Positions 5,009-31,074 of a stretch of 36,242 nucleotides of DNA are shown here, piece after piece. Where the stretch lies: the NCBI GenBank assembly GCA_021786315.1, contig JAJYNN010000002.1:166160-202401 (forward strand). The letters run 5' to 3'. The notes below the pieces were generated by a model, which was not told where the DNA came from, ran no database searches, and worked only from the letters and a program-made list of their open reading frames with translations. The translations under genes and the position numbers were made by a program. Position 1 is the stretch's first letter. Each line of letters begins with the position of its first letter. The stretch comes from a bacterium (GTDB taxonomy: Bacteria; Patescibacteriota; Microgenomatia; Daviesbacterales; UBA10151).

Positions 5009-6673
5009 ATGAACCCTGTGGCTCTGCTCGCCATTGTGCTCGGAAACCTGACCGTTTCCGTCATTGCCTACCGCTATTTTAAGAAATTCCAATCCACCGT
5101 GGCCTTGCATGACCTGGAAATGGCCAAGCGGGAAAAGGAACTCAAAAGAAGGGTTTTGGAGCTGCAGGTTTTGCGTTCCCTGGGGGAGCGGGCAGGGTAT
5201 TCTTTAGACCTCCGGCAGATTCTGGAAGTGATCACCGACAGCTTGACCGGGCTGGTGGAGTTTGCCACCGTGGCCTATATGCTTCCGGGCAAAGAAGGCA
5301 GGATTATCTTTAAGATCCGGGCTGCTGAGCCTGTTTCCCGTAAGTTTTTAACCCAAACCAAGTCCCAAATGCTCGAGGCCTTTTCCGCCATGACCGGAAC
5401 TTCTTTGCAGCCTGGTTTAATCGATGAAACAGCCTCAGGCAGCGCTATTGATGACACCTCGGACATTACTGTAGGCTCATTTTTCAACCTGCCGATTATT
5501 ATCGGGGGCAAGGTAGTAGCCTTGGTCAACGTTTCTTCCCCTAAGACTGGCCTTTACGGGGATGAGGAGACAACGATCCTTTATACCATCTTTAACCAAG
5601 TATCCACCCAGGTGGACAAGCTGGTTTCGGTGGTGGAGAACGAAAAACGCCGCCTTTCCGCCATGATCGGCTCTTTGACCGACGGGGTGGTGATGGTTGA
5701 CGGCAATTTTAACCTCATTGTGGCTAACCCTATTTTAGCCCCGCTTTTAGGGTTAACCCGGCCCGTTGCCAGCCTTTACGACCTGGTGGCGGCCATCGGC
5801 ACCAAAGTGGACCTTCAGGGAGCCATCTCCCAGGCCTTTACCAAGCAAAGCATGGTTTCTTTACCGGAAATCAGCCTGGGTGAGAAGGCGGTGCAAATTG
5901 ATGTGGAGCCGGTGAAAGACCGGTTCGGCTACCTTTTGGGGGTAGCCGTGGTTTTCCATGATGTCTCAGCCAGAAAAGCCCTGGAGAAGCTGCGGGAGGA
6001 GTTTACGGCGATGATGGTCCACGAACTCCGCACGCCTTTGACCACCATCACTTATTCCATCGACATGATGAAAACTGACTTGCCGAAGATGAAAACGGAG
6101 GATGTCAGCCAGAACCTGGGGATTATTAAGGGGACCACGGACAATATGCTTTCTTTGGTCAACGAGCTTTTGGATGTGGCTAAAATTGAGGCCGGGAAGT
6201 TTATCGTGGTCAAAAAGGAGGATGATTTGGCCGGGATGCTCAACGAAAAAGTCCAGGCATTTAAAGCTTTAACTGACCAGAAGCATATCTATTTGACTGC
6301 CCAGATTGATCCCCATCTGCCTAAAGTCAGCTTTGACCGCAATCGGCTTGGCCAGGTGGTCAACAACCTCCTTTCCAATGCCATTAAATACACTGACAAG
6401 GGCGGAGTGAGTATTCGGGCGGAGGGCAAGGATGGCCAGGTGGTGGTTTCGGTTTCCGATACCGGTGACGGCATCAAGCCGGAAGACCTAAATAAGCTTT
6501 TCTCCAAGTTTGAGCAGCTGGGCAAGGGTAAAACAGGGGAGAAGGGTGGAACGGGCTTGGGATTGGTGGTAACCAAAGGTATTGTTGAAGCCCACGGAGG
6601 CCGGATTTGGGTCACTTCCCCCGGTGAGGGCAAAGGGACAACATTTAGCTTCAGCCTGCCGCTGGGTCAGTAG
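5009..6673 (+). CDS. Sensor histidine kinase (TM, GAF/PAS-like sensor, HisKA, HATPase_c)
   Basis: H-box HELRTPLTTI, N-box NLLSNAIKYT, G1 DTGDGI and G2 GGTGLGL. N-terminal TM. Confidence 0.93.
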   Translation: MNPVALLAIVLGNLTVSVIAYRYFKKFQSTVALHDLEMAKREKELKRRVLELQVLRSLGERAGYSLDLRQILEVITDSLTGLVEFATVAYMLPGKEGRIIFKIRAAEPVSRKFLTQTKSQMLEAFSAMTGTSLQPGLIDETASGSAIDDTSDITVGSFFNLPIIIGGKVVALVNVSSPKTGLYGDEETTILYTIFNQVSTQVDKLVSVVENEKRRLSAMIGSLTDGVVMVDGNFNLIVANPILAPLLGLTRPVASLYDLVAAIGTKVDLQGAISQAFTKQSMVSLPEISLGEKAVQIDVEPVKDRFGYLLGVAVVFHDVSARKALEKLREEFTAMMVHELRTPLTTITYSIDMMKTDLPKMKTEDVSQNLGIIKGTTDNMLSLVNELLDVAKIEAGKFIVVKKEDDLAGMLNEKVQAFKALTDQKHIYLTAQIDPHLPKVSFDRNRLGQVVNNLLSNAIKYTDKGGVSIRAEGKDGQVVVSVSDTGDGIKPEDLNKLFSKFEQLGKGKTGEKGGTGLGLVVTKGIVEAHGGRIWVTSPGEGKGTTFSFSLPLGQ

Positions 6674-6789: not shown

Positions 6790-7698
6790 ATGATTAATAA
6801 GGCGCGTTTTTATTCAGCCATTACCTTGACTATCGCTCTCGGTCTTTTGGGCTACGCCTTAGGGGGAATCCTTCCCTTACCTGACCCCTTTACCACCACC
6901 AAAACCCGGGAAGTTTATGCCCTTCTGGGAGTTTTACTCAGTATTTTAATCTTTGCCCCCTTGTCTTCCTGGATCGTCAAAACCACCACCAAGCTGGCGG
7001 CTGAAGCCGTTTCTAAGGTTGCCTTGGAAATTATTAAGCACTTAACCACCCGCAGATTACCGGTCAATATTGAGACTGCAGCCCAGCTGGGGGTGCAGGA
7101 TGCCATAATCCTGGATACCTCAACTATTATTGACGGCAGGGTCCTGGAAGTGGCTAAAACGGGTTTTTTGTCAGGTTTGATACTGGTTCCCGACTTTGTT
7201 TTAAAGGAGCTGCAGCAGGTGGCAGATTCGGCTGACCACTTAAAAAGGTCCCGGGGAAGGCGGGGTTTTGAGGTTATGGGCGAGCTGAAAAAGATCAAGG
7301 GAATCAGGCTTCAGGTTTGGGAAGAGGCTTCCGCTACCTCTCCTTTAGGGAAAGAGGTGGATGATAAGTTGATGAATTTAGCCCAGACTGTCAAAGGAAA
7401 GATTTTAACCTGCGATTTCAACCTTTCCCAGGTGGCCAAAATCCGGGGGATCAAGGTTTTAAACCTGAACGAGCTTTCCAATTCCCTAAAGACTTTGCCT
7501 ATCCCCGGGGAAAAGTTGACCGTTAAAATCATGCACCAGGGAAAAGACCGTGACCAGGGGGTAGGGTATACCCTAGACGGGGTGATGATTGTAATTAAGG
7601 ATGGGGCAGCCTTTACCGGCAAAGAAATTGAGGCGGAAGTGACTAAAATTCTCCAGGGTTCCTCAGGCCGGATGATCTTCGGCAAAAAAGTTTCCTAG
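6790..7698 (+). CDS. PIN/TRAM-domain membrane protein (YacL-like)
   Basis: Two N-terminal TMs, a PIN-like IILDTSTIIDGRVLEVAKTGFLSG..VPDFVLKELQQVADS, and a C-terminal TRAM-like GEKLTVKIMHQGKDRDQGVGYTLDGVMIVIKDG. Confidence 0.82.
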   Translation: MINKARFYSAITLTIALGLLGYALGGILPLPDPFTTTKTREVYALLGVLLSILIFAPLSSWIVKTTTKLAAEAVSKVALEIIKHLTTRRLPVNIETAAQLGVQDAIILDTSTIIDGRVLEVAKTGFLSGLILVPDFVLKELQQVADSADHLKRSRGRRGFEVMGELKKIKGIRLQVWEEASATSPLGKEVDDKLMNLAQTVKGKILTCDFNLSQVAKIRGIKVLNLNELSNSLKTLPIPGEKLTVKIMHQGKDRDQGVGYTLDGVMIVIKDGAAFTGKEIEAEVTKILQGSSGRMIFGKKVS

Positions 7699-8761: not shown

Positions 8762-9655
8762 ATGAAACGAGCAGTTCTTGCCTCTATTGCTTTAATTGCA
8801 GGCTCATTAGCCTTTGCCGGCGGTGTCAAAGCCGGTCTAGTCCCATATTTTGGTGGTGAATATACCAACCTTTACGGTTCAGGTACTAGCGCCACTGTCC
8901 ATACTGGCACCAATTGTGATCCTAATTCTGGTAGCTGTAGCGGTCCCGCGGTTTATAAGTACGTTTGTGATGGCCGCACTACCGACTGCCGTTCCAATGA
9001 AAGTTTTGGCACCAGCGGAAGCGTTTACACCTCTGAGTGCAACAAAACTGTCCAATTAGACGTCTTTAGCGGAAGCTGCAGGGGGGATAATAACCAATGG
9101 AACTGCGGCGACAATTCACTTATAGATTACATGGTTTGGTATTCCGGAGCTTGCAGTGCTCCGGCTCCTACTGCCGTGCCGACTGCAGTTCCGACCATCC
9201 CGGTAATCGTGGCTACACCAACCCCTACCCCTATAGTTGAAGCTCCTGCGCCTATAACTACCCAGGAATGTCCTGCCGGTACAGTTTACGGGGGAATTTC
9301 CGGATCCAATATTATTTGTGTCCAGCAGGTCCAAGAGCAGACCCAAAACGCCGTGGCCAACGCCAACGCAGCTACCGGAGCTATCACTATCAATGTCCCC
9401 AACAATAACTCACCGGTTATCCGTTCAGTCAGTTTTGTAGTTCCTACTCCACAAGTAGTTTTGGCTGCTACTGAGCAAAAAACTGCTGTAGTGACCACTA
9501 CCGAGCTTCCTAAGACCGGTTTACCATTTGCCGCCTGGGGTTTAACCGGCTTGGCTCCTGTAGGTTTTGGGCTGAGAAAATTCGGCGCCTTTAAGAAACT
9601 TGGCGCTGATACCGCTTCCTTCATCTGGCAGAAACGGGAGTTCGAAAGGAACTAA
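8762..9655 (+). CDS. Secreted Cys-rich LPxTG-type surface protein, paralog A1
   Basis: Signal peptide MKRAVLASIALIAGSLAFAGGVKA, Cys-rich head, PT linker, CPAG..GSNIICVQQ..QNAVANANAATGAITINVP module, then LPKTG + TM + RKFG + FIWQKREFERN tail. ATG 8762 is preferred over TTG 8726, which is the promoter -35 box itself. Confidence 0.8.
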   Translation: MKRAVLASIALIAGSLAFAGGVKAGLVPYFGGEYTNLYGSGTSATVHTGTNCDPNSGSCSGPAVYKYVCDGRTTDCRSNESFGTSGSVYTSECNKTVQLDVFSGSCRGDNNQWNCGDNSLIDYMVWYSGACSAPAPTAVPTAVPTIPVIVATPTPTPIVEAPAPITTQECPAGTVYGGISGSNIICVQQVQEQTQNAVANANAATGAITINVPNNNSPVIRSVSFVVPTPQVVLAATEQKTAVVTTTELPKTGLPFAAWGLTGLAPVGFGLRKFGAFKKLGADTASFIWQKREFERN

Positions 9656-9661
9656 CCTCCT

Positions 9662-10528
9662 ATGTCTAGAGAATCTGAGCAGAGATTCCAAAAAGCTATT
9701 GTTGTGGGAAGAATTGCCTCAGCTGTAGTGGCTCCTGCAATACCTTTAGTGCTTCCACATTTTGTTAATGCTGATACTTCCGCTTCCAGTTCCCATACTT
9801 ACAATATCGGCAGTGAGTCACCGGTAGAGAAGCTGATGCGTGAGCTGGGTGTGGTAAGTGTTGCTGAAGCTGCTGATCCAGTATGCACTTTAAGAGAGGT
9901 GGAAATTGCCGGTGATAAACTAAAGAAAAATCCCCGCACCGGACAAAATTTTGGCGTTTTTGTTGTTGGCAGGGATAAAAAAACCGTTCTTGCCCAAAGT
10001 CGATTAGATGATCAAGGACATGCCAGTATACGCTCTATTACTGCTGCTTGTGATATGGAGAATGGGACAGCTTTAGGTTATTGGGTTTTTCTTGAGGACA
10101 GAGATAGACAGGGGAAAGAATTTGTTACGCCGAATAACGCTAAAGAACAAATAGACTCCGCTCTAATAGCGTTATCCACCGATTTTGAGCCTAAGACACC
10201 TCCCTTACCAACTGTAACCCAGGCTGCTAGTAAATTAGAGCCTACTACCACTCCAACAAAGACTCCGGTTGTTGGACCTGTTAGACCGGTTGCGACTGTA
10301 ACACCTGCTCCAAGCGGACCAGTTGGTCCAAGAAATCCCGGAACTGGGCGAACGGATTGGCAGCAAACACTCCTTGATTTCGTTGATACTCCAGCTCGGA
10401 TCCTTGCTCCGAATGCCAACTCAGGAACCAAAGTGTGGATAGATATTTTGGGAGACATCATCCTGCTAAGTGGTGTAGGCTTTGTTGCTGCGGGGATGGT
10501 TTGGGGAATCAGAAGGATTTTTCATTAA
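9662..10528 (+). CDS. Membrane protein B1 (N-terminal signal/anchor, Pro-rich segment, C-terminal TM), partner of A1
   Basis: N-terminal hydrophobic IASAVVAPAIPLVLPHFVNA and C-terminal TM ILGDIILLSGVGFVAAGMVWGIRRIFH. Starts 6 nt after the A1 stop. Confidence 0.7.
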   Translation: MSRESEQRFQKAIVVGRIASAVVAPAIPLVLPHFVNADTSASSSHTYNIGSESPVEKLMRELGVVSVAEAADPVCTLREVEIAGDKLKKNPRTGQNFGVFVVGRDKKTVLAQSRLDDQGHASIRSITAACDMENGTALGYWVFLEDRDRQGKEFVTPNNAKEQIDSALIALSTDFEPKTPPLPTVTQAASKLEPTTTPTKTPVVGPVRPVATVTPAPSGPVGPRNPGTGRTDWQQTLLDFVDTPARILAPNANSGTKVWIDILGDIILLSGVGFVAAGMVWGIRRIFH

Positions 10529-10530
10529 TT

Positions 10531-11439
10531 ATGAAAAAGATATTATTGACCATTATTGCTTTAACTTTGATTTTGGTTTTTAAAAGCCCTAGTTCAGTTT
10601 TGGCTTTTGATTTACCCGATGGTGATGTATGGGGTGATGGAGGAGTGGCTTGTAATGAAGTTAAAAGAACCCCCTATCCTCAATGTGCCGGTACTGTTGG
10701 TTTAGAGGATAAAACGAAATATTCTGTGGGAGATACAATCTTAGTAACCCCAATCGAAGATTGTTATGGGAACCTCATCCGTTATGACACTCAAAATTAT
10801 GGAAACTTAGGTCAGTGTGGTGTGCCTGCTCCGGGAACCGGAAGCACGGGATCTCCTTCTACAGTAGTCTCTGCTCCGGGTAGCGGCAGTCCGATGACCA
10901 TTCCGGTGGTAGTGGCTCCTTCCCAAAACCAAGAATCAATGTCCATTCCAATAGTTGTGGCTCCGGCAGCCCCTAACCAAAATCAAAACACTACACCAAA
11001 CCAGGGTACTGTCCCTGGTGTAACTCCCACACCAACTTTGGGGGTTGTTTCTCCTGTAACTTCTAATATCCAGTCTTGTCCGGCCGGCACCGTTTGGGGT
11101 GGGGTAGAGGGCTCAAATATCATCTGTGTCCAGCAAAACCAATCCCAGACCCAAAATGCCGTGGCCAATGCCAACGCTTATACTGGTGCCATCACTATCA
11201 ATGTCCCCAATACCCAAAGCGGACCCCGGGTAGTGGAGAGTGTTAAAGTCCTGCCGGCCCAAAATGTCGTTTTGGCCGGGACAACCACCCTTCCGAAAAC
11301 CGGGTTGCCGTTTGCCGCCTGGGGTTTAACCGGACTTGCGCCTTTGGGGTTTAAGTTGCGCCGGTTTGGCGATTTAACTAAACCGGGTACAGGACTTGCT
11401 CAATATCTCTGGCAAAGCCGGGAATTTAACCGAGGCTAA
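10531..11439 (+). CDS. Secreted LPxTG-type surface protein, paralog A2
   Basis: Signal peptide MKKILLTIIALTLILVFKSPSSVLA, CPAGTVWGGVEGSNIICVQQ..QNAVANANAYTGAITINVP, then LPKTG + TM + YLWQSREFNRG. ATG lies 2 nt after the B1 stop, so the 10435 extension is rejected. Confidence 0.8.
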   Translation: MKKILLTIIALTLILVFKSPSSVLAFDLPDGDVWGDGGVACNEVKRTPYPQCAGTVGLEDKTKYSVGDTILVTPIEDCYGNLIRYDTQNYGNLGQCGVPAPGTGSTGSPSTVVSAPGSGSPMTIPVVVAPSQNQESMSIPIVVAPAAPNQNQNTTPNQGTVPGVTPTPTLGVVSPVTSNIQSCPAGTVWGGVEGSNIICVQQNQSQTQNAVANANAYTGAITINVPNTQSGPRVVESVKVLPAQNVVLAGTTTLPKTGLPFAAWGLTGLAPLGFKLRRFGDLTKPGTGLAQYLWQSREFNRG

Positions 11440-11512: not shown

Positions 11513-12946
11513 GTGAAAGAGAGATCTGTTGGGCGTATAGTCAGCAGGGCGGTTGCCGTGGGGGCAATAACCGTAGGAATGGGGGCTTATGACTATCTCC
11601 ACCCTCCGGTAACGGATGCCGCCCCTGATCCCTTAAGCCCTGCTTCCACCTCCCGCCAATTCCGGGACTGTCTGACCGGTTTCCGGGTGATTTTACCTGC
11701 AGGCACCAGGGCGACCATCGATATGGAAGATGTAGCAACGGGCGAGAGGGTGGCTTCCCAAAGCGTAATTAACGACCAAAAAGTTTCCTTTAACGTCAAC
11801 TCCAACACCACTATGCCCGATGGGCGTCCGGGTTTTAGGGGCAGAATCTTTAACGATGCCATTCCGGAGACAAAACTGGATACCCTGGCTGCCTGTGGGG
11901 AGAGGGCGGTTGTCGAGTTTGGCCGAAGTCCGGGGGTCCCTCCTATCACACCTCCCGGAATTCCTACCCCCATCAATCCTTTTCCTCCCGGCCCGGAAAA
12001 TCCGGACATTAATATCAATTCCAACAGGGTGGATGTTAATGCTTCAAGCGTGGTGATTACCGCCACCAACCCGTTTACCGGAACCGGGACAACTATTGAA
12101 GCAGGGACTGCCGACAGCGGCGAAAATTTCCGCCGGTGGTGGTGGCTGCCGGCCAGTATTATAACTGCCGGCTTTTTGGCTGGCTGGTGGCATGTTTTGG
12201 GTGGAGGGAGAGAGACAGTGGTAGTCAGAAGACCTTACCCGCCAGGTGAAGCCCCGTCCCGGGCTCCGGGTGAACCAGTTCCCCCCCGCGGGCCTTATCC
12301 TCCGGAAAGGACTGCCCGCCCGGTGGTTGTCCCCGAAAAAGGAAGAAGGAGATGGAGGTGGCCTTGGGAAAAGAGGGAAGCGGTTGACGAAGAGACAATC
12401 AGGGAAACCGAAGTTCAAAAAACCACCGGCGAGAAAACGGCCGGTGTTAAAACCACGGAAAAGACTGTCAGGGTAGAGGACACGCAAAAGGAGAATGCTG
12501 ATTTGAAAAAAGACATCCAGACCAAGGATATCGCTGTCCAGAACTTGGAAAAGCAAAACCAAAACCAGAAAAAGATGATTGAGGAAACTATTGTATCCAA
12601 ACAGGATGTCCAGTCAAAGTTGGATGAGAAGGAAGAGGAGAACAGGAAGCTGAAGGCGACGATAGATAAGTTAAAGAAGACTCCGGGGAGTGCGGCGGCG
12701 AAAGAGCCAAAAGTCGCCAAGGAAACGGCCGGTAAAAATGCCGGGAAGGGAGCTGCCGGGAGGGGTAAAGAGCCTGCGAAGACGCAAACCAAGGCTGCCG
12801 GAAGCACAAACAAGGCTGTAGCCCAGGCAGGGCAGACAATAGAAAAGGCCGGAGAAAAAATATCCAAAGCCGGAGAAAAGATTGAAAAAACAGAGGAGAA
12901 AAGGACTGGCGGAACGAGGAGGCGACAAGGGAGAGGCCCGGCATGA
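11513..12946 (+). CDS. Bitopic membrane protein B2: exported domain, Trp-rich TM, Arg/Pro-rich then coiled-coil Lys/Glu-rich cytoplasmic tail
   Basis: GTG start. N-terminal anchor IVSRAVAVGAITVGMGAY, mid TM WWWLPASIITAGFLAGWWHVLGG, and a heptad-like ENADLKKDIQTKDIAVQNLEKQNQNQKKMIEE...KLKATIDKLKK. The TGA stop overlaps the A3 start (ATGA). Confidence 0.7.
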   Translation: MKERSVGRIVSRAVAVGAITVGMGAYDYLHPPVTDAAPDPLSPASTSRQFRDCLTGFRVILPAGTRATIDMEDVATGERVASQSVINDQKVSFNVNSNTTMPDGRPGFRGRIFNDAIPETKLDTLAACGERAVVEFGRSPGVPPITPPGIPTPINPFPPGPENPDININSNRVDVNASSVVITATNPFTGTGTTIEAGTADSGENFRRWWWLPASIITAGFLAGWWHVLGGGRETVVVRRPYPPGEAPSRAPGEPVPPRGPYPPERTARPVVVPEKGRRRWRWPWEKREAVDEETIRETEVQKTTGEKTAGVKTTEKTVRVEDTQKENADLKKDIQTKDIAVQNLEKQNQNQKKMIEETIVSKQDVQSKLDEKEEENRKLKATIDKLKKTPGSAAAKEPKVAKETAGKNAGKGAAGRGKEPAKTQTKAAGSTNKAVAQAGQTIEKAGEKISKAGEKIEKTEEKRTGGTRRRQGRGPA

Positions 12947-13812
12947 AGCTATTATTGGGGTTTTTAGTACTAATTTTAGGGTCTATTCCAACTACCGCCT
13001 TTGCCCAGCAGATAGGTACGGAACCGATAGACGGAACAGATTTGGTGCCGATTGCCCAAGTAGACAGCAATCCTTTTTCGGGAACGGACTTGGTGCCAAT
13101 TGGCCAGGTGGGGACAGAGCCTATTTCGGGAACTGGGGTGATCCCTGTGGGACAAGTGGGGACGGAAGTAATTCCTACGCCTATACCTCAGCCCCCGGTG
13201 ATCCAACCGCCCCCGGTGGTGGTTGTGCCTCAGCCGCTTCCCGCCCCCATTCCTATCAACAACACTTTTAATCCGACGATAAATAACTCACCCGCTTTTA
13301 ATAATGCCGTGGATATCAGTAATACGCTGGCCCAGGCTCAGTCCCAAAGGCAGGGCCAAAATGCCATTGCCAATGCCAATGCCAGAACAGGCCCCATCAC
13401 CATTAATGCCCCGGCTGCTCAGCCCCAGGTCGTGACTGCGGTCCAGCCGGTCCAACCCATACAAACTGTCCAGAGTGTTCCGGTGCAGGTAGTCCAAAGT
13501 GTTCCCCAGCCGGCGGAAACCATTCCGATTGTGGTGGCTCCGGCGACCCAGACTGTCCCGGTGCAAACTACCCAGCAGGTCCAAACAACGCCTGTTACCC
13601 AGGTAGCCCAAAAGACTCCGGTGGTAACTTCCACAGGAACTGCTCCGGTGGCGGTCCAGCAGCTGCCCCAAACCGGGCCTCCCGCAGCAGCCTGGGCGCT
13701 TTCAGGATTGATCCCCTTCGGGTTACGGTTACGCAGCTTTGGCAAAAAAGTTCAGGGGGATGAAAACAACCCCAGCTTTATCTGGCAAAAAAGGGAATTT
13801 GATAAAAATTAA
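12943..13812 (+). CDS. Secreted LPxTG-type surface protein, paralog A3
   Basis: Signal peptide MKLLLGFLVLILGSIPTTAFA, GT(E/D)(P/L)I repeats, QNAIANANARTGPITINAP, then LPQTG + TM + FIWQKREFDKN. Confidence 0.8.
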   Translation: MKLLLGFLVLILGSIPTTAFAQQIGTEPIDGTDLVPIAQVDSNPFSGTDLVPIGQVGTEPISGTGVIPVGQVGTEVIPTPIPQPPVIQPPPVVVVPQPLPAPIPINNTFNPTINNSPAFNNAVDISNTLAQAQSQRQGQNAIANANARTGPITINAPAAQPQVVTAVQPVQPIQTVQSVPVQVVQSVPQPAETIPIVVAPATQTVPVQTTQQVQTTPVTQVAQKTPVVTSTGTAPVAVQQLPQTGPPAAAWALSGLIPFGLRLRSFGKKVQGDENNPSFIWQKREFDKN

Positions 13813-13987: not shown

Positions 13988-15352
13988 ATGGGTAGACAAG
14001 AACAAGGCCAAGAGCAGGAACCAACCATAGCTTCCGTTTACGGCATTAAAAAAGACAGGAGTTTCAAACACGGGGCTATAGTGGCCTTAAGAATATTTCT
14101 TGGCGGCGTTTTGGCGACGGAGTTTGCCGCTGCTTCCGGCTGGAATCCTTTTGATGTATTTAATACCCAGCCCGATACCACACCTCGTGTTGCCTCGACT
14201 GACCCGCCAAAGGCAACCCCGGAGGGGTGGAGTTTGGCAAATACCGCTACACCAACGGCAACCGGCACCGCTTTGGCGGTCGCATCTTTGGCCGGGGATT
14301 GGGTTTCAGCTGTCGGTTATGCTGCTCCCCGGGGCGCGGAAGATATCCATGAATCTTCGAACTTTATCAACTTGGATTGTAGCAATATCGGCAACGGTGA
14401 CCCGGCAACGCCGGAGGAGCTGGTCCAGTGCATCCAGCAGAGTACCCTGGAAAGGGGTTTCTTTGAAGCTGCCGGAGCCAATGTCGACGAGTTTGATACA
14501 AGCAACGTTTTGAGTAAGGTTGCCTATAAGGATTTGGCGGAAGATTTGGCGGCCAAGGATTTAATTGATGAAGAGGCGGCCCGGGATATTTTAGGGGTAG
14601 TGGGGGAGACTAGGACGATGACTTTTAGGAAAATTCTTTCTGAGGGGAAGATAGTTTTGGGAACTGCGCCGGTAACCTTAGTTGATTACCCGACGACCAG
14701 GCGTGATGAACTGGATGTCAATGAGCTGTTTTGGGAAGTGATCTTTCAGGCCGGGGACGTCCGGAAGCTGGCTTTTGTGGAGGATCTCTGTGAAAATCCG
14801 ATGGGACTTATTATTACTGCTCCCGAAGTTACTCCCACCCCGACGCCAACTCCGACAGAAATACCGCCGGCCCCCGGACCAGGACCCGGACCCGGCCCAG
14901 GACCAGAAGCCACCGCTACACCCCAAACACCACCTGGGCCAACGGCAACGCCAACCCGGGAAGCAACTGCTACCCCACAGCCGGTGCCGGAAACACCAAC
15001 TCCTACGCCGCCTACGGGGGCTCCAACTCCTACCCGCGAAGCCACTGCCACACCTCAGCCCCGGCCTGAAGTGACAGCCACCAGAGAGGCGACTGCCACC
15101 CCTCAACCTGTACCGGATACTCCGGTGCCTACCTCTGTGCCAACCAGGGAAGCAACTGCTACCCCTGATCCGCCAACTCCGGTTCCCACCACCGCTCCGG
15201 CCCCGACATCTGTTCCCACTTCTGCCCCGACGAAAGAACCCACCGCCGTTCCAATCCCCACGGCTGTGCCGACTTCTGCGCCGACTGCAGTCCCAACTAC
15301 CGCCCCGACAGCGGCGCCAACCAGGGAGCCTGGTGCCACCCCCAGCCATTAG
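13988..15352 (+). CDS. Membrane-anchored protein B3 with a long Pro/Thr-rich repetitive C-terminal half
   Basis: N-terminal TM GAIVALRIFLGGVLATEFAAA, a globular domain, (GP)x5, and four REATATP(Q/D)P repeats. Confidence 0.7.
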   Translation: MGRQEQGQEQEPTIASVYGIKKDRSFKHGAIVALRIFLGGVLATEFAAASGWNPFDVFNTQPDTTPRVASTDPPKATPEGWSLANTATPTATGTALAVASLAGDWVSAVGYAAPRGAEDIHESSNFINLDCSNIGNGDPATPEELVQCIQQSTLERGFFEAAGANVDEFDTSNVLSKVAYKDLAEDLAAKDLIDEEAARDILGVVGETRTMTFRKILSEGKIVLGTAPVTLVDYPTTRRDELDVNELFWEVIFQAGDVRKLAFVEDLCENPMGLIITAPEVTPTPTPTPTEIPPAPGPGPGPGPGPEATATPQTPPGPTATPTREATATPQPVPETPTPTPPTGAPTPTREATATPQPRPEVTATREATATPQPVPDTPVPTSVPTREATATPDPPTPVPTTAPAPTSVPTSAPTKEPTAVPIPTAVPTSAPTAVPTTAPTAAPTREPGATPSH

Positions 15353-15504: not shown

Positions 15505-16569
15505 ATGATTAGCAAAATATTACGTAAAAAGATTTTTCCTTTAATAGCAGCCGCTTTATTTACTTTGGGTATTGGAGGTACTCAGTTTTTAAATGCTACC
15601 CCGGCATATGCCAACACCACATTCCAGGGCGGTAACTTTTACCTTGATTCCAATACCAATAGCCCGGCCTGGGTTGATCCGGTAACAGCCAATGTGGGGG
15701 ATATTATTGAATTCCATATGGAGATCGATAATACGGGAGCGGAGACGGCCCAGTATGTCAAAGTCCAGGCGACATTCCCAGCTAATGTTTCGGGTACCCA
15801 GTTGGTGTCTACAGCCACGGTGACGGCGGACAACGCCTCCTCGATGACCGATACGGCCACGATTAACGTCAACTCTTCCTCGATTCCGTCGGGAGCCACC
15901 ATAAGCCTGGTTTATTTCCCCGGCCATGCGACCTTGATTACCCATCCGGGGAATGTAACTTCCTCGATTGAGCAAATCGGCACAGGCGGTGTGACTTCCA
16001 TCGGCAGCCTTAATGCAGGTTCAAATGTCTTTGCCGAGGTGCTTTTCAAGGCTCAGATTGTGGCTAACGTCAGCCCGACTGAGACGCCGACACCTACCCC
16101 GACTATAACCGTAACCCCGACTGTAACCGTAACGCCGACTCCCACCGGAACCATCGCTCCAACCCCGACTACCGGTCAAGGTAATGTGGTTTCCTGTCCG
16201 GAAGGCTTTGTCTCGGTAGTGTCCGGATCCAACATTATCTGTATGCAGCAGGTAAACAACCAGTCGGTCAATGTGACCAACAACAATAATAATACCAACA
16301 ACAACAGCGCCACCGGGGGGTCGTCTAACAACACCAACAACATTACCGTGAAGGCTGCAGCCGCTGCCGCAGCAGCTCCTACCCCGGCGCCCGTTGCCTC
16401 TTCAGTCCCTGCTGTTACCCAGTTGCCCAGAACCGGGCTTCCGATGGGGGCATGGCTGCTTTCAGGACTTTTACCGGGAGGGCTTGGCATTAGAAGGTTA
16501 ACCAAGAGGGGACAAGGGAATTCCGACAGCGCCACTTATATCTGGCAAAAAAGAGACTTCGACAAGTAA
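15505..16569 (+). CDS. Secreted LPxTG-type surface protein, paralog A4 (DUF11-like N-terminal domain)
   Basis: Signal peptide ...LNATPAYA. NVGDIIEFHMEIDNTGAETAQYVKVQATFP resembles the DUF11 conserved repeat domain. Then CPEGFVSVVSGSNIICMQQ, an Asn-rich run, and LPRTG + TM + YIWQKRDFDK. Confidence 0.8.
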   Translation: MISKILRKKIFPLIAAALFTLGIGGTQFLNATPAYANTTFQGGNFYLDSNTNSPAWVDPVTANVGDIIEFHMEIDNTGAETAQYVKVQATFPANVSGTQLVSTATVTADNASSMTDTATINVNSSSIPSGATISLVYFPGHATLITHPGNVTSSIEQIGTGGVTSIGSLNAGSNVFAEVLFKAQIVANVSPTETPTPTPTITVTPTVTVTPTPTGTIAPTPTTGQGNVVSCPEGFVSVVSGSNIICMQQVNNQSVNVTNNNNNTNNNSATGGSSNNTNNITVKAAAAAAAAPTPAPVASSVPAVTQLPRTGLPMGAWLLSGLLPGGLGIRRLTKRGQGNSDSATYIWQKRDFDK

Positions 16570-18471: not shown

Positions 18472-19830
18472 ATGCCTACGCGTTCATTTAAACCAGCACA
18501 GACTAATGATGATGAGACTAAAGCCCCGAAAGAGGTGGAGGAATTCGTGGGTTCAGATGACCAGAATGTCGGAGTATCAGAGTCTCGGAATAGCGAATCA
18601 GGGGATTCTGACATGCCGGCACGCCGATACTCTGACCAACCGTCCCGTTACGGGAGAGGTGGTTACTCTGACCGGGGATATTCCGAACGTGAGCGGGATG
18701 TGCCGACAGAAGCCGTTTCCGGTGTCTTAGACTTAATGCCGGAAGGACACGGGTTTTTGCGCCCGAAATACACCCCTTCCAACAAGGATGTTTACATCTC
18801 GGCTTCCCAAATCCGCCGTTTTAACATGCGCCCGGGGGATTTAGTGGAAGGTATGGCCAGGCTTCCCAAAGAAAATGAAAGATACCTGGGACTTTTACAG
18901 GTTGATAAAATCAATGGGGTCAGCTCAGAAAAATTTGTTTCCGAGGGGACAACCAAGGTTAAACGGACCCGTTTTGAAGACCTGACTGCCATTTATCCCA
19001 ACAAACATCTCAAATTAGAAACCGGCAAAGCCCCGCTTTCCCAGCGGGTGATCGATTTAGTGGCCCCGATTGGTTTTGGCCAAAGAGGCTTGATTGTGTC
19101 ACCGCCTAAAGCCGGCAAAACCACGATTTTGAAAGATATTGCCGCCGGCATTACCGCCAATCATCCGGATGTAGTTTTAATGGCTGTTTTGGTAGGTGAG
19201 CGCCCGGAAGAGGTGACTGACCTTTCCCGGTCTATCAAAGGTGATGTCATTGCCTCTAACTTTGATGAACCGGCAGAAGCCCAAACAGCAGCCGCTGAGG
19301 TGGCCTTAGAGCGGGCAAAAAGGCTGGTGGAGGAAGGTAAAGACGTAGTCATCCTTTTGGATTCCATTACCCGTTTGGGCCGGGCTTACAACTTATCTGT
19401 TCCGCCTTCCGGAAGGACACTTTCCGGAGGTTTTGATCCGGTCGCGCTTTATCCGCCGAAGAAATTCTTTGGGGCCGCGCGTAACTGTGAAGAGGGAGGA
19501 TCCCTTACTATCATTGGAACAGCCTTGGTGGATACCGGTTCCCGGATGGATGATCTGATCTATGAAGAGTTTAAAGGTACCGGGAACATGGAGCTTCACC
19601 TTGACCGCTCATTGGCGGAAAGAAGGACCTTCCCGGCTATCGACATCGAAGCTTCCGGAACCCGTCAGGAGCAGCTGATGTTTAATGAGGAAACCTACAA
19701 GAAGATGGTGGTCATGCGCCGGATGCTCGGGCTCCTTTCTCCGGGGGAGAGAACCGAAGTATTTTTGGAAAGACTCTCCAAGGCCGGAACTAATGCCGAT
19801 TTCCTCGAATCCCTTAAGGAAGTTAAGTAA
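18472..19830 (+). CDS. rho: Transcription termination factor Rho with a disordered acidic/RGG-like N-terminal extension
   Basis: RNA-binding domain [14 protein letters not shown]...[16 protein letters not shown], Walker [16 protein letters not shown], and C-terminal ...[19 protein letters not shown]. Confidence 0.95.
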
Positions 19831-22185: not shown

Positions 22186-22257
22186 GGGCCCGTGGTCTAG
22201 CGGTACGACGTCTCTATGGCATAGAGAAGGTGAGGGGTTCGACTCCCCTCGGGTCCA
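22186..22257 (+). tRNA. tRNA-Ala (anticodon GGC)
   Basis: Manual cloverleaf fold. Acceptor GGGCCCG/CGGGTCC with the G3:U70 alanine identity pair. Anticodon arm TCTCT-ATGGCAT-AGAGA. T arm AGGGG-TTCGACT-CCCCT. No encoded CCA. Confidence 0.88.
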
Positions 22258-22261
22258 CCCA

Positions 22262-22332
22262 GGGCTTGTAGGTAAACGGCATACCGGTACATTCGCATTG
22301 TACAGTTCCGGGTCCAATTCCCGGCAAGTCCA
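22262..22332 (+). tRNA. tRNA-Ala (anticodon CGC)
   Basis: Acceptor GGGCTTG/CAAGTCC with G3:U70. D arm GGTA-AACGGCA-TACC. Anticodon arm GTACA-TTCGCAT-TGTAC. T arm CCGGG-TCCAATT-CCCGG, an unusual T loop. Lies 4 nt after the previous tRNA. Confidence 0.8.
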
Positions 22333-22401
22333 CAAATACTTGTTTGTTGAGAAATACAGAAGGATTTACCCTAACTACTTACTGCTGATCCCTTAATACT
22401 A

Positions 22402-24732
22402 CTACTGTTCCTTTTTAACCGCCGGGGGAGTGGCGACGTTTTCCGGTTTGGGCAGATCCAGGACATTAGGAAGGTTCTTGTTTTGTAAAGCGGAACTGGG
22501 GGTTTGGGCGGCCGGAGCCTGGATCTTCTGTTGGGCCTCCTGTTCGGCCTGTTGCTTGGCAGCAGCGCTGGCAATCTGGTCCTTCAGGCTCTTGAGCAAG
22601 TCGGAAGCAACCTGATAATCCTGGCTTCCCGGATCAAGCAGGGAAACTGTCCTTTCAGCACTGGTGGCAGCCCCCACCAAATCACCTTTATCCTTTAAGG
22701 CTACGGCCAAGTTGAAGTAGGCGTTGGCAAAATCCGGCTTTAAGTTGACCGCGTCAGAGAAGAACCTGATGGCCATATCGTAGTTTTTAACAGAGTAATA
22801 GATGCCTCCCACAGTCAGCCTTAAGCTGGGGTTCATCGGGTCTTGCTGGATAGCCCGTCCGTAGGAATCCAGGGAAAAGGTCAGGGCATTTTGAGCCACA
22901 CCGGAAATTTGTCTATAGATTGATCCCAGGATTTCCCAGTTTAAAGGGTTGCGGGGGTTTAAAGCTGCAGCAGCTTGGCCCTCGGCGATTGCCTGGGAAA
23001 GGAGGGTTTGGATATTTTGTTTATCGGCATCGGTTAGGGACCCGGAAGGGGAAGCCTCAGTTGGGCCTTTAGCAGCAGCGATGGCATTAGCCAGGGCAAA
23101 GTTGGTTTGGGCCATATCGGAGCGGTAAAGGTCAACGCTGGAATTAAGCTTCTCGGCGGCAATTAGTTGGTTGTAGGCATCAAGCCCCCGGCCGGCGGCT
23201 ACAGATTGGAGGGCCTGGCGGTGATAGAAGTCAGCCAAAACAAGTTTCCCGGTGAAGTAATAGGTTGTGCCGACTAAAGCCAGGACAATCAGCAAAATGA
23301 TGGCCGGAAGAGCATCGAAGTGCAAGTGAACGCCATCCTGTAGGGTTTGGGTGGTGGTTAAGCCGATCTGTATGTTGTTATTCTGCCTTTTCCCACTGGC
23401 CATAAAAGCAGCCAGGAGGATAATTCCGATAACCATCAAAGGTAGGGTGGAGGTGTGCAGGGCGAGTAATACAAATAAGGTAATACCGGAAATAGCCAGG
23501 GAAAGGTTAATGCTGCCACTAGGTGCAGCGAGAGCTTTGAAAGCCTGAGAAACAAAGACCACAGTCAGGAGGATCAAAGCGATAAGTCCCAAAGCTCCCA
23601 AGGTGGCCAATGTCTGCAGGTATTCATTGAAAGCAGTATCAAAGCGGATATTCCATAATTTGGTGGCGTTAAATTCAGCCGGCTTGTAAGTTGTAAAGTC
23701 GGAAAGGTAAGAGGCGGGACCTGTTCCCCAAAAAGGTGCATCGCGGAAAGTGGAGATGGACACTTTCCAGGAGGTTTGGAATGGCAATTGAACCTCGCGG
23801 GGGAAGTTTTGGGCTTGGTTGTACAAAGGATTCTTAGTTTTGGCCATCGGAACCAAGGAAACAAAGATTAAGACTACCGCCAAGGCCAAAGGAGCCAAAA
23901 CAAAAGCGGCATTCTTTTTAATAAGTAGGGGGGAGGTGGTAAAGAAAGCCAGGGCAAAAGCGGCAGCTGCGGCGATATAGGTTGCCCATGATCCGATTAA
24001 GGCGATGGTGGCGGTAAACAGGACTAATACCAGTGTCAGTAAAACCTTGTTAAAAATTTGGGCTGGGAAAAACTGGCTAAAAGCGCTCTTGGAAGCCTGC
24101 ATTCTCGGAATAGAGTTCATATTGCCCAAGACCTCTTTTTCTCCATCCTGGAGGATGATCATTAGAGGGAACGGCAAAAGCAAGGCCAAAATAGCGGCAG
24201 TGGAAAAGCTTGACCCGGTGGGGGTAAAGTTTAATCCGGCTGTCCAGGGCAAAGTTAAAACATTAACCCCAAAATAGGAGAGGAGGGAAAGGATTGATAG
24301 CACTACCCCGGAACCCAAAAGTAAATAGATTAGCTGTTTGATGACGCTGATTTGCTTAAAATTGGAAACCAGGGTGAAGTATAAAATAATGTAGGCGGCA
24401 AAAGTTGCCAAGCCTCCGTGAATCCGCGGTAGGTTGCCTAGAATTGAAACTGTTTTGGTGGGGGAAAAGAAGGTGGAAATACCAAATACTGCCAAAAGCA
24501 ATATAAACGGCAGGTCCAATGAGGTGCGGGCAACTGTTAATTTACCTGCAAATACACCTTTAGCTATCCAAAGTACCAATAGGATGCCGGTGATGGCTAT
24601 TAAAAGGATAAACTTGGGAGTTTCGTAGAACTCGGAAGTTAAATTCCAAAAGAAAAATGGGGTGAGTAGAGCCAAAGCCATGACCCCAAAGTTAAAAATA
24701 ATGTTTAGCCAGTAATTGACCCTTTCTGTCAT
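22402..24732 (-). CDS. Polytopic O-antigen-ligase-like (Wzy_C-type) membrane protein with C-terminal TPR repeats
   Basis: About 12 or more hydrophobic spans in the N-terminal 480 aa. C-terminal TPR-like repeats (YYSVKNYDMAIRFFSDAVNLKPDFANAYFNLAVALKDKGD). Confidence 0.65.
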   Translation of the reverse strand: MTERVNYWLNIIFNFGVMALALLTPFFFWNLTSEFYETPKFILLIAITGILLVLWIAKGVFAGKLTVARTSLDLPFILLLAVFGISTFFSPTKTVSILGNLPRIHGGLATFAAYIILYFTLVSNFKQISVIKQLIYLLLGSGVVLSILSLLSYFGVNVLTLPWTAGLNFTPTGSSFSTAAILALLLPFPLMIILQDGEKEVLGNMNSIPRMQASKSAFSQFFPAQIFNKVLLTLVLVLFTATIALIGSWATYIAAAAAFALAFFTTSPLLIKKNAAFVLAPLALAVVLIFVSLVPMAKTKNPLYNQAQNFPREVQLPFQTSWKVSISTFRDAPFWGTGPASYLSDFTTYKPAEFNATKLWNIRFDTAFNEYLQTLATLGALGLIALILLTVVFVSQAFKALAAPSGSINLSLAISGITLFVLLALHTSTLPLMVIGIILLAAFMASGKRQNNNIQIGLTTTQTLQDGVHLHFDALPAIILLIVLALVGTTYYFTGKLVLADFYHRQALQSVAAGRGLDAYNQLIAAEKLNSSVDLYRSDMAQTNFALANAIAAAKGPTEASPSGSLTDADKQNIQTLLSQAIAEGQAAAALNPRNPLNWEILGSIYRQISGVAQNALTFSLDSYGRAIQQDPMNPSLRLTVGGIYYSVKNYDMAIRFFSDAVNLKPDFANAYFNLAVALKDKGDLVGAATSAERTVSLLDPGSQDYQVASDLLKSLKDQIASAAAKQQAEQEAQQKIQAPAAQTPSSALQNKNLPNVLDLPKPENVATPPAVKKEQ

Positions 24733-24930: not shown

Positions 24931-25617
24931 TTACTCTTCGATTACTAAGGGGTAAATCAAATTTGAGATTTCATTGTTATCTGTTTGCCCTACAAAGGAT
25001 TTATAGGAAAGCTTGGGATTTGTTTGGGAAAAGAATGCCAGAATCTCATCTGGTTTAACCCAAGCCCCTTGATGACTACCCAAATATGCTGGGTAGGAAG
25101 ATGGTTGGCCTTGGCCGCTTAAACTATATTTGTCAAAGGATTGTTTATGGATATAGCGGGAAAGTTCCAAAAGCTGGGCATCTGTTTGGACTAAAACAGC
25201 TTTGTAGGTCCCCTGGTAGAGTGCTCCCACCCGCTTGTATTTTTTATTAAAGTACATGGTATATCTTGTACCTAAAGAGTTCATAAACTTATCAATAGCT
25301 CCGGCACTTTTTTGTTTAACCAAAAGGTGAAAATGGTTGGGCATTAGGCAATAGGCGAGAAGGGTAATATCATCTGCAAAGTTATTCATCCTGATCTGTT
25401 TTCTTAGCCCGTCTCTTTCGGGAATGGGTGTTCGGGGGTTTGCTAATTGTTCCATTAAGGAAACACTATCCTTGGGTGTCAGATAAGTTTTTAGGTAGGA
25501 GATAAAGACTGAATAGTCCTGTTGGTCCTGGAAGATGGAGCGCTTTTCAACCCCTCTATTATATATATGGTAGTAACCCTCTTCGACATATTGTTTAACT
25601 ACATTTTTTGCTGGCAT
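24931..25617 (-). CDS. HUH / Y1 tyrosine transposase (IS200-like or REP-associated RAYT-like), 228 aa
   Basis: YHIYNRG N-terminal motif, HUH motif in LLAYCLMPNHFHLLV, and a catalytic-Tyr context SRYIHKQ. Confidence 0.82.
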   Translation of the reverse strand: MPAKNVVKQYVEEGYYHIYNRGVEKRSIFQDQQDYSVFISYLKTYLTPKDSVSLMEQLANPRTPIPERDGLRKQIRMNNFADDITLLAYCLMPNHFHLLVKQKSAGAIDKFMNSLGTRYTMYFNKKYKRVGALYQGTYKAVLVQTDAQLLELSRYIHKQSFDKYSLSGQGQPSSYPAYLGSHQGAWVKPDEILAFFSQTNPKLSYKSFVGQTDNNEISNLIYPLVIEE

Positions 25618-25681: not shown

Positions 25682-28600
25682 TTAAGGGGCTCCTGTTGCC
25701 GGAGCAAAGTTAATGGCTCCGTTGTTATAGACGTTTTTGACCTGGCTAGCTGTTAAGGCATAGTTATAAATCCTTACATCATCAATCTGGCCGGGAAATA
25801 ATTGCCCCGCTCCGTTACCATAACTGCCAATATTGGCAACTTCTCCCGCGGTGGATGTCGGCGTTCCGGAATCGCTGGTGGTACTAACTAAAACCCCGTT
25901 AACATATAATTTTGTAGTTGTGCCATCCCAAGTACCTACCACATAACTCCAGGTATTGATTGCCGCATCGTCAGTACTGTAGGTCCAGCTGCCGCTGGCA
26001 TCGGGATTAAAAGCCCATTTGCTGGTGTTGCTAATTTTTAGGCGGTATCCGTTGGGGGTTCCGTCTCCTCTCTGGAAAATTACATACCAACCAGTGTTAT
26101 TAGTAGGGTAAACCCAGGCGGAAACGCTAACCTGGCTTGTTTGATCCAAGCTGGTACCGCTACCTATGTTTACATAATCATCAGTCCCGTTAAAGTAGAG
26201 GGAAGAATTTCTTTTTCCGGTTGCTCCTTTACTCCAAGCGGTGGTATTAGTTCCGTCGCTGCAAGTTCCCATAGTCGTGCTTCCACTATGGGTACCGGAA
26301 TTGTTATTGCCGGAAGAATCATGCAAAGTGTCTCCCTGGCATTCATCAAACTTCCACCAGCCAACAGGCCCACCCCGGTTATAATCATAGGCAATTTGGG
26401 CAGGAGTACGAAGGTATTTATAAATTCTCATTTGGTCAATTGACCCGTTGAGCCAGTTGCCGTTGCCGTTTCCGCCTAGAAGGGCTGACAGGCTATTGTC
26501 TATGTTTCCACTGCGGCTGGCTATAGAGGTGGGGGTGCCGTCCTGTTTACCGTCAATGTAAATTGTCCCGTTCCCATCCCTGTCAAATGCGGCAACTACA
26601 AAATGCCATTTGTTATTATCAATCCTTGATGTTGAGGTAAAGGTTGTAAATCCTAAACTGTCTTCAATTGTCGGATTTAACGTACCGTCACTCTTAATTG
26701 TCAAGCGCCAACCGATATCTCCTCCGTAACCCGCGCCTTTTCTGATAATTGCTTTTTCCTCAGAAACTGTCCCTGTTTTTACCCAGGCCTGCACAGTAAA
26801 ATCTCCGGTTCCCATATCCAAATCTCCACTGGCAGGGTCTCCCAAATCCACATAATCATCAGTGCCATTAAATTTCCCAGCTTTACCTACTTTGCCAGAA
26901 GTCCAATGGGAACCGGTTCCGTTCCAGGCTCCGTCATTACCTGACCCGGAAGTGTCACAAACATCATTTGTTCCGCCAGAACAGGTATCATCCTTGCCTT
27001 CCTCAAAGTCCAAACGGGCTACCGGGGGAGCACAGGAAGTTGAATCTCCGGGCACGCAGTATTCCTGGTTGGCAGAATTTTTGTCATAAGAAGAATTGCT
27101 TCCCAAAGCCCCCATTTGTAAAGATGAACCATGATTGTACTCAAGTTTGACCTCATCAGCCGTTAAGGCATAGTTGTACATTTTTACTTCATCCATTGTA
27201 CCGGCAAAATATTCATTGGCGATATTGTAGCCAATAGTGACATCGGTGTTGTTGTCGGTAATTGAGACGGTGGCCGCGGTACTATTATTCAGAGCCCCAT
27301 CCAGGTAAAGTTTCAAGGTTGCTCCGTCCCAGGTTAAGACCAGATGGTGCCAGACACCAGCCGGAAGTTGGGCTGGACTTTGAGTAGAATAGACAACTGT
27401 GTCATTACCTTTGACGATTCCTCTAATGGCGTAAGAGTCGGTACTTCTTTGATATTGGAGCTCGAAGGGAATGCCGGTTGTACTCCAGGCGGAACGCTTG
27501 GAAATAATTGTTCTCCAGCAGGTGGCGACCGAACAATATGAATCCAACTTGGTCCAGGCGGAAATGGTAAAGCCGGTTAGCCCGTCAAAGGTCGATTCAT
27601 TTGATGTACTGACATAATCGTCGGTCCCGTCAAAGATTAAACCTTTCCCGTATTTACCTGCTTGGGTCCAGCCGGAGGTGGCAGTGGCAGGGGAGGTCAT
27701 GTTGGTTAAAGTGCCATTTAGAGCCGAACCGCCGTTGCCGGAGTTGTGAGCGGTTGTACCTTGTCCCTCATCAAATTTCCAATAACCAAGAGGGGATCCC
27801 ACTGGTGAACCCACGTTAGGATGGGATCCGTTCATATCCGAGACAATTTGTTTTGATGTCCGGGCATAATTATAAATTTTAATATCATCAAGCAAGCCAT
27901 TATAAGGGTAGGCTCCGTTGGTATAGGCACCAATTAAGATGGGATTGGCACCAAGATCCATACTTTTGTTTAAGGTAGTGCTATTGATCTGGACACCGTT
28001 TTGATAGGATCTAAGCACTGATCCATCATAAGTAAAGGTAATATAAGTCCAGGTATTATTACTAAGATTATTCGTTACTACGCTGTTGCCTCCGCTGTTA
28101 CCGCCGCTTTTGAAATACATCACTAAATTGCTGGCAGTATTAGCTTTCCAGATTCCCCAGCTGGTACCCCACTTAGTGATGAGGTCCTGTTCATTTCCGC
28201 TAAAAGCTTTGGGATTCATCCAGAAAGAAACAGTTAACATTCCTGTATCCAAGCTATTGGCATCAGCCACTGATACATAATCATCCGTACCATCAAATGA
28301 ACAGGCACCTCCGTATTTACCCTGGGCTTGAGAACAGTCAGTATGGTTATAGGTAGTCCCGTTGTTACCGTTACCTGAAATATCAACAATAGTCTGGGAA
28401 GCCCCTTTAACATGATCATCCATCTTCCAGTATCCCACTGGTCCCGGTGCCCAATTGTAGAGGTTGGAAACCTCAGTAGGTGAAAGGGCCCGGTTATAAA
28501 TCCTGACTTCATCAAGTTTGCCGTTAAAATCCCGGTTGGCCGTGGGGCTCCCGTAACGGGCGCCAAGGTAAAGATTATTGGCGCTGGAATCAATGGCGCC

Positions 28601-31048: not shown

Positions 31049-31074
31049 TAAATTTTCAAAACACAATTTTCAGT
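31018..31074. repeat. AT-rich word-repeat block overlapping the G1 start
   Basis: ttaattttcaatttaaaatttacaattttcattaaattttcaaaacacaattttcag. The first 11 codons of G1 (MKIVNFKLKIK) are encoded by it. Confidence 0.5.

Follow-up and report, generated by a model that had tools for sequence, protein, structure and literature searches.

What does the C-terminal end of a sortase-type surface protein do on the inner side of the membrane? In prokaryotic C-terminal sorting signals, the cytoplasmic end is regarded as no more than a passive means of retention, and in the Candidate Phyla Radiation surface proteins are believed to serve in host attachment. The stretch of DNA analysed here (36,242 nucleotides, hereafter the window) raises the question through four paralogous genes, whose products carry an LPxTG motif, a hydrophobic segment and a pair of basic residues, and then continue into a second conserved block. 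Our analysis identified this extended tail as a genuine variant of the LPXTG sorting signal, specific to one lineage and not modelled before, that includes a fourth conserved, probably cytoplasmic, element.

We translated four forward-strand stretches, each including its stop codon (9506-9655, 11290-11439, 13663-13812, and 16423-16569). The resulting peptides, counted from the first residue of LPxTG up to the stop codon, are 49, 49, 49, and 48 residues long and identical to those quoted in an earlier reading made from the DNA letters (the sequence-only reading), whose tail positions and lengths were thus exact. The starts of the four paralogs were taken from public gene calls (Table 1), and paralog 1 is 100% identical to the 297-aa public gene call P0157. 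A hidden Markov model of the family tail scored all four window tails at E = 1e-21 to 1e-24, with tail 1 at E = 1.6e-24. A degenerate DNA pattern for the tail matched the window twice, compared with 0.00 matches expected from shuffled sequence.

Table 1. Positions of the tail genes, the parts of tail 1 and neighbouring features in the window.
Feature	Position	Strand	Description
Syntenic histidine kinase	5009-6673	+	N-terminal transmembrane (TM) segment at ~residues 4-22; cytoplasmic GAF, HisKA, HATPase
PIN/TRAM gene	6790-7698	+	Upstream boundary of tail-gene locus; conserved across loci
Paralog 1, secreted surface protein	8762-9655	+	297 aa; ORF and translation; signal peptide, Cys-rich N-domain, PT linker, Cys-loop stalk, extended LPKTG tail
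Cys-loop stalk element	~9295-9360		In paralog 1; residues 235-248 in paralog 4
Tail 1	9506-9652	+	49 aa; LPKTGLPFAAWGLTGLAPVGFGLRKFGAFKKLGADTASFIWQKREFERN
LPKTG pentapeptide, tail 1	9506-9520	+	Sortase-type recognition motif
Hydrophobic segment, tail 1	9521-9574	+	Tail residues 6-23; LPFAAWGLTGLAPVGFGL
Basic stop-transfer pair plus FG, tail 1	9575-9586	+	RKFG
Spacer, tail 1	9587-9613	+	Tail residues 28-36; low-information, hydrophilic
Terminal motif, tail 1	9614-9649	+	[AP]x[YF][IL]W[EQ]xR[EQ]FxK; ASFIWQKREFER; putatively on the cytoplasmic side
Interleaved unannotated ORFs	9662-10528, 11513-12946, 13988-15352		Three ORFs, each with an N-terminal TM anchor
Paralog 2	10531-11439	+	302 aa (P0002); tail 11290-11436
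Paralog 3	12943-13812	+	289 aa; tail 13663-13809, LPQTG
Paralog 4	15505-16569	+	354 aa (P0156); tail 16423-16566, LPRTG, 48 aa
rho	18472-19830	+	Downstream boundary of tail-gene locus; conserved across loci
Tandem tRNA-Ala genes	22186-22259, 22262-22333	+	GGC and CGC anticodons
Wzy_C (O-antigen-ligase-like) and TPR protein	22402-24732	-	776 aa; conserved in block
IS200-like Y1 transposase	24931-25617	-	Beside Wzy_C gene
Two giant proteins	25682-31066, 31484-36241	-	1,794 aa and >1,530 aa; 6-7 Laminin_G_3 repeats, without LPxTG tail
ORF	31075-31446		

At the N-terminus of all four paralogs, the sequence itself shows a basic n-region followed by a hydrophobic core and an AxA-like site, an arrangement that resembles a Sec signal peptide. 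After it come a variable passenger, a PT-rich linker, a Cys loop that three of the four share, and a Q/N-rich stretch that leads into the tail. In paralog 4, the passenger is a DUF11/CLIPPER-like beta-sandwich. Paralogs 1, 2, and 4 and many other family members share a conserved stalk element, C-P-x-G-x8-GSNIIC-VQQ-x-QNQ, on the N-terminal side of LPxTG; AlphaFold2 predicted it as a beta-hairpin in paralog 4 (pLDDT ~80), and its two cysteines could form a disulfide.

Using only the four window tails as a profile, we searched 1.84 billion representative proteins exhaustively. With clusters defined at 50% identity, the search identified 345 cluster representatives at E ≤ 1e-3, of which 85 reached E ≤ 1e-10, and nearly all matches cover profile positions 1-48 and lie at the extreme C-terminus. 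The tail is a distinct conserved module, as the sequence-only reading had proposed; its conservation goes beyond recent common descent, and it occurs in homologs far outside the locus of the window. Among the best 149 matches, 144 measure 46-53 residues from L to the C-terminus, with a mode of 49, and the pentapeptide is LPKTG in 122 and LPRTG in 13. One protein of 3,888 aa (P0001), which gave 13 partial matches to profile positions 9-32, was left out because it is probably a low-complexity false positive. Word-indexed searches with tail profiles returned either zero matches or only nine unnamed fragments.

An alignment of 146 family tails (alignment A3) resolved two conserved blocks. The first, at positions 1-27, reads LPKTGLP-x-x-A-W-x-x-x-G-L-x-P-x-G-x-x-L-[RK]-[RK]-F-G; the second, at positions 37-48, reads [AP]-x-[YF]-[IL]-W-[EQ]-x-R-[EQ]-F-x-K and places a further conserved block beyond the basic stop-transfer residues, as had been claimed from the window alone. 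Residues P2, T4, G5, P18, and G20 are invariant, and L1, L6, P7, W11, W41, and R44 are at least 90% conserved. Within the pentapeptide, L is constrained at 99% and P, T, and G at 100% each, and the X position is variable (K 82%, R 8%, the rest others). Basic residues (R/K) occupy position 24 in 98% of tails and position 25 in 92%, and F follows at position 26 in 84%. The 22-25 residues after the basic pair comprise FG, a spacer and the second block, in which W41, R44, and F46 are conserved at 75-96%. The spacer is rich in K, S, E, N, D, and G, has a net charge of ~0 and measures 9±1 residues in 87% of members; the Trp of the motif falls at position 41 in 86 of 135 tails and at positions 40-42 in 119 of them. 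The hydrophobic segment is 18 residues long, with a mean Kyte-Doolittle value of 1.49 (range 0.79-2.34). By the same measure, the control tails of protein A and M6 gave 1.73 and 1.83, in the order listed. It had been described as a short TM segment, but at this length and hydrophobicity it is not unusually short for an LPXTG signal.

Codon comparisons among the four paralogs, and also among 19 genomes, showed many synonymous differences in the conserved blocks, whereas change in the spacer is mostly non-synonymous. The abundance of synonymous differences indicates that constraint acts on the peptide, and it ruled out the tail as a DNA or RNA element or as the product of recent gene conversion. 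In three second-copy tails, Trp41 is replaced by Cys and the Q/E-x-R is kept (locus L012, positions 3-380; L019, 6850-7530; L021, 1901-3775); their endings read …DNLCQERIV…, …DNVCQERVV…, and …NYICEERKF…, and Pro7 is also lost in two of these Cys41 variants.

Curated models did not recognise the tail. Neither the tails, nor a tail truncated after RKFG, nor the four whole proteins matched any Pfam or NCBIfam model at E ≤ 10, and 40 family members matched no sorting-signal model in these collections. The positive controls were recognised: the tails of Staphylococcus aureus protein A and M6 scored 25.9 and 31.3 bits against TIGR01167 (cutoff 15.9) and 38.6 and 60 bits against PF00746. The sequence-only reading, which had seen no named family in the tail, thus agrees with the lack of a full-length match to an existing sorting-signal model in Pfam or NCBIfam. 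Because the anchor models overlook these proteins, their annotation goes no further than hypothetical; every named relative carries the label “hypothetical protein [Candidatus Daviesbacteria bacterium].” Our literature searches found no description of the extended tail. A hidden Markov model built from alignment A3 would repair this annotation and enable phylogenetic profiling for a partner.

Related loci (designated here by L numbers) were located with hand-made degenerate DNA patterns, the 146-tail alignment having no stretch conserved enough for back-translation. A specific pattern applied to GTDB species genomes identified 21 loci in 21 assemblies, and a relaxed pattern identified 40 metagenome contigs. 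The 21 assemblies are named as Candidatus Daviesbacteria, Microgenomates, Patescibacteria and, in some cases, “uncultured Gammaproteobacteria” metagenome-assembled genomes (MAGs). Third-party MAGs labelled “uncultured Gammaproteobacteria bacterium” (L007, L011, L012, L016, L018, L019, L021, and L023) have the Microgenomates gene order together with the tail family, and this label is probably a placeholder or an error. The tail family belongs to Candidatus Daviesbacteria and related Microgenomates.

In essentially all loci, one to four tail genes occupy a single conserved site between the PIN/TRAM gene and rho, and in most genomes a tail gene lies directly upstream of rho. The genes follow one another as RadA, LytR_C, (response regulator, histidine kinase), PIN/TRAM, zero to two unannotated membrane or secreted proteins, the tail gene or genes, and rho, with an M23/LysM peptidase, (a beta-lactamase-like gene), and Wzy_C/TPR further downstream. 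The beta-lactamase-like gene has a weak Peptidase_S11 match. Together, these genes form a conserved cell-envelope block around the tail genes in Daviesbacteria and Microgenomates (window 126-24732; L004-L070). Other genomes have one or two copies of the tail gene; in the window, three genes for membrane proteins with an N-terminal anchor alternate with four tail genes. One contig (L025, ENA k141_410043, 471 kb) breaks off right behind its PIN/TRAM gene, where the paralog array would begin, probably because the repeated tails and stalks broke the assembly.

Each of the 21 GTDB assemblies and each of the 40 metagenome contigs, four of which are 1.0-1.15 Mb long, contains a single tail stretch. 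The DNA patterns detect 34-40% of family members, and even at this sensitivity the occurrence of a single stretch everywhere makes dispersed extra copies unlikely. Within 247 kb of related DNA, no genuine ORF with LPxTG and a TM segment ends in a classical short tail; all of them carry the extension. The tail is thus the conserved anchor of one surface-protein family that is positionally conserved and fast-evolving at its N-terminus. With one locus per genome and one to four copies, it does not behave as a tag shared by multiple cargos. Of the earlier proposal of a sorting-domain subclass, the distinct module stands; a class with many cargos does not, as the tail marks one family at one locus beside rho.

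Is the family processed by sortase? A free X in an otherwise invariant L-P-x-T-G, combined with a hydrophobic segment, a basic pair, a signal peptide and a stalk, is, as judged from the protein sequences, the anatomy of a sortase substrate. No sortase was detected in the window or within ±10 kb of ~65 related loci, either with Pfam models on the pooled neighbours or with a scan for the TLxTC motif, and an adjacent dedicated sortase was rejected on this basis. A sortase family is reported to be near-ubiquitous in Microgenomates (PMC6744442). Because no curated LPXTG model recognises even the truncated part comprising LPKTG, the TM segment and RK, we regard cleavage by sortase as putative.

An exported N-terminus, a single TM segment and the positive-inside rule would together place the last ~25 residues in the cytoplasm. 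We modelled paralog 4 with AlphaFold2, using an alignment of 40 family sequences. The model contains the beta-sandwich passenger (pLDDT >90) and an N-terminal helix at residues 2-25; the hydrophobic segment is of low confidence and forms no helix. A terminal helix at residues 343-353 covers exactly ATYIWQKRDFD, with pLDDT ~75. Foldseek with the whole model returned weak Ig-like matches only (RbmA, a CLIPPER domain, and the S-layer protein SlpX).

Among 1,206 ORFs of the related loci, the terminal motif matched 67 times within the family and 0 times elsewhere, and with no occurrence outside the family we rejected the idea that it addresses membrane proteins in general. The hydrophobic moment of the motif is no greater than that of shuffles, which excluded an amphipathic helix on the membrane surface. 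A predicted helix that is non-amphipathic and exclusive to the family favours specific docking over generic binding to the membrane. Likewise, a flexible linker of fixed length followed by a non-amphipathic helix with conserved W, R, and F is best read as a docking peptide.

On balance, we lean towards a lineage-specific extended sortase sorting signal in which a cytoplasmic motif docks with a membrane-proximal partner, and we rate this reading slightly above even. For it, we infer the topology, the sortase cleavage, the docking, the identity of the partner and the timing at which the motif acts. The precursor would be exported through Sec by its N-terminal signal peptide, and export would halt at the hydrophobic segment, kinked by Pro and Gly, and its [RK][RK] pair. 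The halted precursor would then present LPKTG at the outer face of the membrane and its last ~25 residues in the cytoplasm, and a sortase encoded elsewhere in the genome would cut between T and G and join the protein to the wall. The flexible, length-constrained linker of ~9 residues and the helical motif of 11-12 residues ([YF][IL]W[EQ]xR[EQ]FxK) would serve for docking in the cytoplasm: kept at a set distance from the membrane, this peptide would bind a partner close to the membrane. This putative partner may retain or position the precursor for processing, or may handle the leftover C-peptide.

Two kinds of partner are candidates. One may be the single-TM GAF histidine kinase of the block, which would sense processing through the leftover C-peptide; the other may be a cytoplasmic factor that licenses or positions sortase substrates. 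The proposition that the conserved cytoplasmic end is a dedicated recognition peptide for a partner other than sortase is one that we hold tentatively and consider improbable. A strongly conserved cytoplasmic motif at a fixed distance implies that something intracellular reads sortase-type substrates or their remnants, and such reading would concern a major group of the Candidate Phyla Radiation.

A first alternative moves the function to the time after cleavage. Here, sortase would cleave at LPKT/G as usual, and the 45-residue membrane C-peptide would be a signal or a regulated remnant, for instance one sensed by a membrane-anchored histidine kinase that reports on surface-protein processing or one cleared by a protease. 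To our knowledge, the C-terminus of the tail is unlike known C-terminal degrons, which counts against this alternative. The sensing version has a parallel in Streptococcus gordonii, where, according to PMC11502775 (citing Hall 2019), the C-peptide of LPXTG adhesins signals by binding the TM domain of a histidine kinase. At many loci, the syntenic block that holds the tail genes also encodes a response regulator paired with a histidine kinase, and the block kinase combines one N-terminal TM helix and a cytoplasmic GAF domain with the lack of an extracellular loop. Residues within the TM segment (P7, W11, P18, and G20) are conserved along with the cytoplasmic motif, as would be expected of a peptide recognised in and under the membrane. 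However, several tail-bearing loci, L027, L033, and L052 among them, are missing the kinase pair, and adjacency is itself weak evidence because gene order is broadly conserved in small genomes. We regard a function after cleavage as unlikely.

The second alternative dispenses with sortase: LPKTG, the TM segment and the tail would form a permanent membrane anchor whose cytoplasmic helix ties the protein to an intracellular structure or partner. Confinement to one locus is relevant here, as the tail could be a family-specific structural anchor and not a processing signal. The generic LPXTG models miss the region and recognise the control tails, the gene occupies a single locus and is not a multi-cargo signal, and the neighbourhoods of the loci lack a sortase within ±10 kb. 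Conservation of all 49 residues, including the intramembrane Pro, Gly, and Trp, also fits a structural module. Against these points, an L-P-x-T-G in which only X is free is the signature of sortase recognition and is hard to explain for a simple anchor. In addition, the position of LPxTG just outside the membrane, below a wall-spanning stalk rich in Q/N and PT, is typical of wall-anchored proteins, and the reported near-ubiquity of sortase in Microgenomates weighs the same way. A permanent anchor seems quite doubtful to us.

A reinforced stop-transfer signal, in which bulk and interfacial aromatics would block slippage of the C-terminus in an ultra-small cell and no specific partner would be involved, would account for an aromatic and basic cluster ([YF][IL]W..R..F.K) that all family members keep and that could sit at the membrane interface, but we consider it very unlikely, as the motif lacks amphipathicity, it is parted from the membrane by a hydrophilic spacer whose length is fixed, the position-specific conservation of W41, R44, and F46 exceeds generic needs for bulk or charge, and a few basic residues suffice in classical signals (bioRxiv 10.1101/2023.06.07.544157).

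Several neighbours of the tail genes deserve description in their own right. Of the three unannotated ORFs interleaved with the tail genes, one encodes a 288-aa protein with a further TM segment at its end, followed by RRIFH; another encodes a 477-aa protein with a further TM segment, “RRWWWLPASIITAGFLAGWW,” followed by a long Lys/Glu-rich tail; and the third is PT-rich. Weakly related genes adjoin tail genes elsewhere (L022, 4218-5603; L023, 3-1139; and L016, 5751-6428, the last with “NWWMLPAAILAGVGL...RRNRR”). These interleaved TM-anchored proteins may be a partner family of the tail proteins. The syntenic histidine kinase is anchored in the membrane in a way that leaves no room for an extracellular sensor domain.

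Downstream of rho, the block encodes the protein with Wzy_C and TPR domains. Enzymes of the Wzy_C family include protein O-oligosaccharyltransferases, and the combination of such enzymes with the long PT-rich linkers of the tail proteins raises the possibility of O-glycosylation of surface proteins. The IS200-like Y1 transposase beside the Wzy_C gene occurs at the same position in several genomes (L028, 10043-10720; L034), which suggests a fixed or domesticated copy and not an active insertion. The two tRNA-Ala genes are only two bases apart. In related loci, giant proteins begin with a MerR-like HTH, which a TM segment separates from a huge extracellular part (L045, 2,538 aa; L025, 1-5782, 3,559 aa, with Peptidase_S74). 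A large recurrent neighbour cluster that we had considered as a partner of the tail genes was rejected, as it consists of these flanking giant proteins with the MerR-like N-terminus. The ORF at 31075-31446 had no match on the public record.

Compared with known systems, the tail is closest in layout to the classical LPXTG signal (TIGR01167, LPXTG_anchor; PF00746, Gram_pos_anchor). Both have the same constraint on the pentapeptide, a hydrophobic segment of ~18 residues and a basic pair, and both terminate surface proteins that have a signal peptide and a low-complexity stalk spanning the wall. The classical pentapeptide lies ~30-40 residues from the C-terminus, whereas the extended tail spans 46-53; the classical signal ends at the basic cluster or a few residues after it, whereas the extended tail adds 22-25 residues. 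The extended tail also has its own conserved P7, W11, P18, and G20 in the hydrophobic segment and is confined to one to four proteins at a single locus per genome.

In S. gordonii, C-peptide signalling follows processing by sortase A (Hall et al. 2019, PMC6662179, as cited in PMC11502775). In that circuit, the membrane-retained remnant of an LPXTG signal has a function; the block around the tail genes encodes a membrane-anchored histidine kinase. The S. gordonii remnant is an ordinary short C-peptide with an intramembrane interaction, whereas the extended tail adds a conserved cytoplasmic motif; the kinase of the tail block, a candidate counterpart, is not always adjacent.

Prokaryotic C-terminal sorting signals are described as tripartite, with a motif ahead of a TM segment and a basic cluster behind it (bioRxiv 10.1101/2023.06.07.544157). 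Haft-type domains (PEP-CTERM, GlyGly-CTERM, PGF-CTERM, and MYXO-CTERM, among others) follow the same three-part plan at the extreme C-terminus, starting from a short signature motif, and are lineage-restricted. They stop at an Arg-rich cluster and tag many unrelated cargos per genome, whereas the extended tail has a fourth conserved element and belongs to one syntenic family. If the proposed partner other than sortase does read this end, the tail would add a fourth, cytoplasm-facing element to the tripartite plan of these signals.
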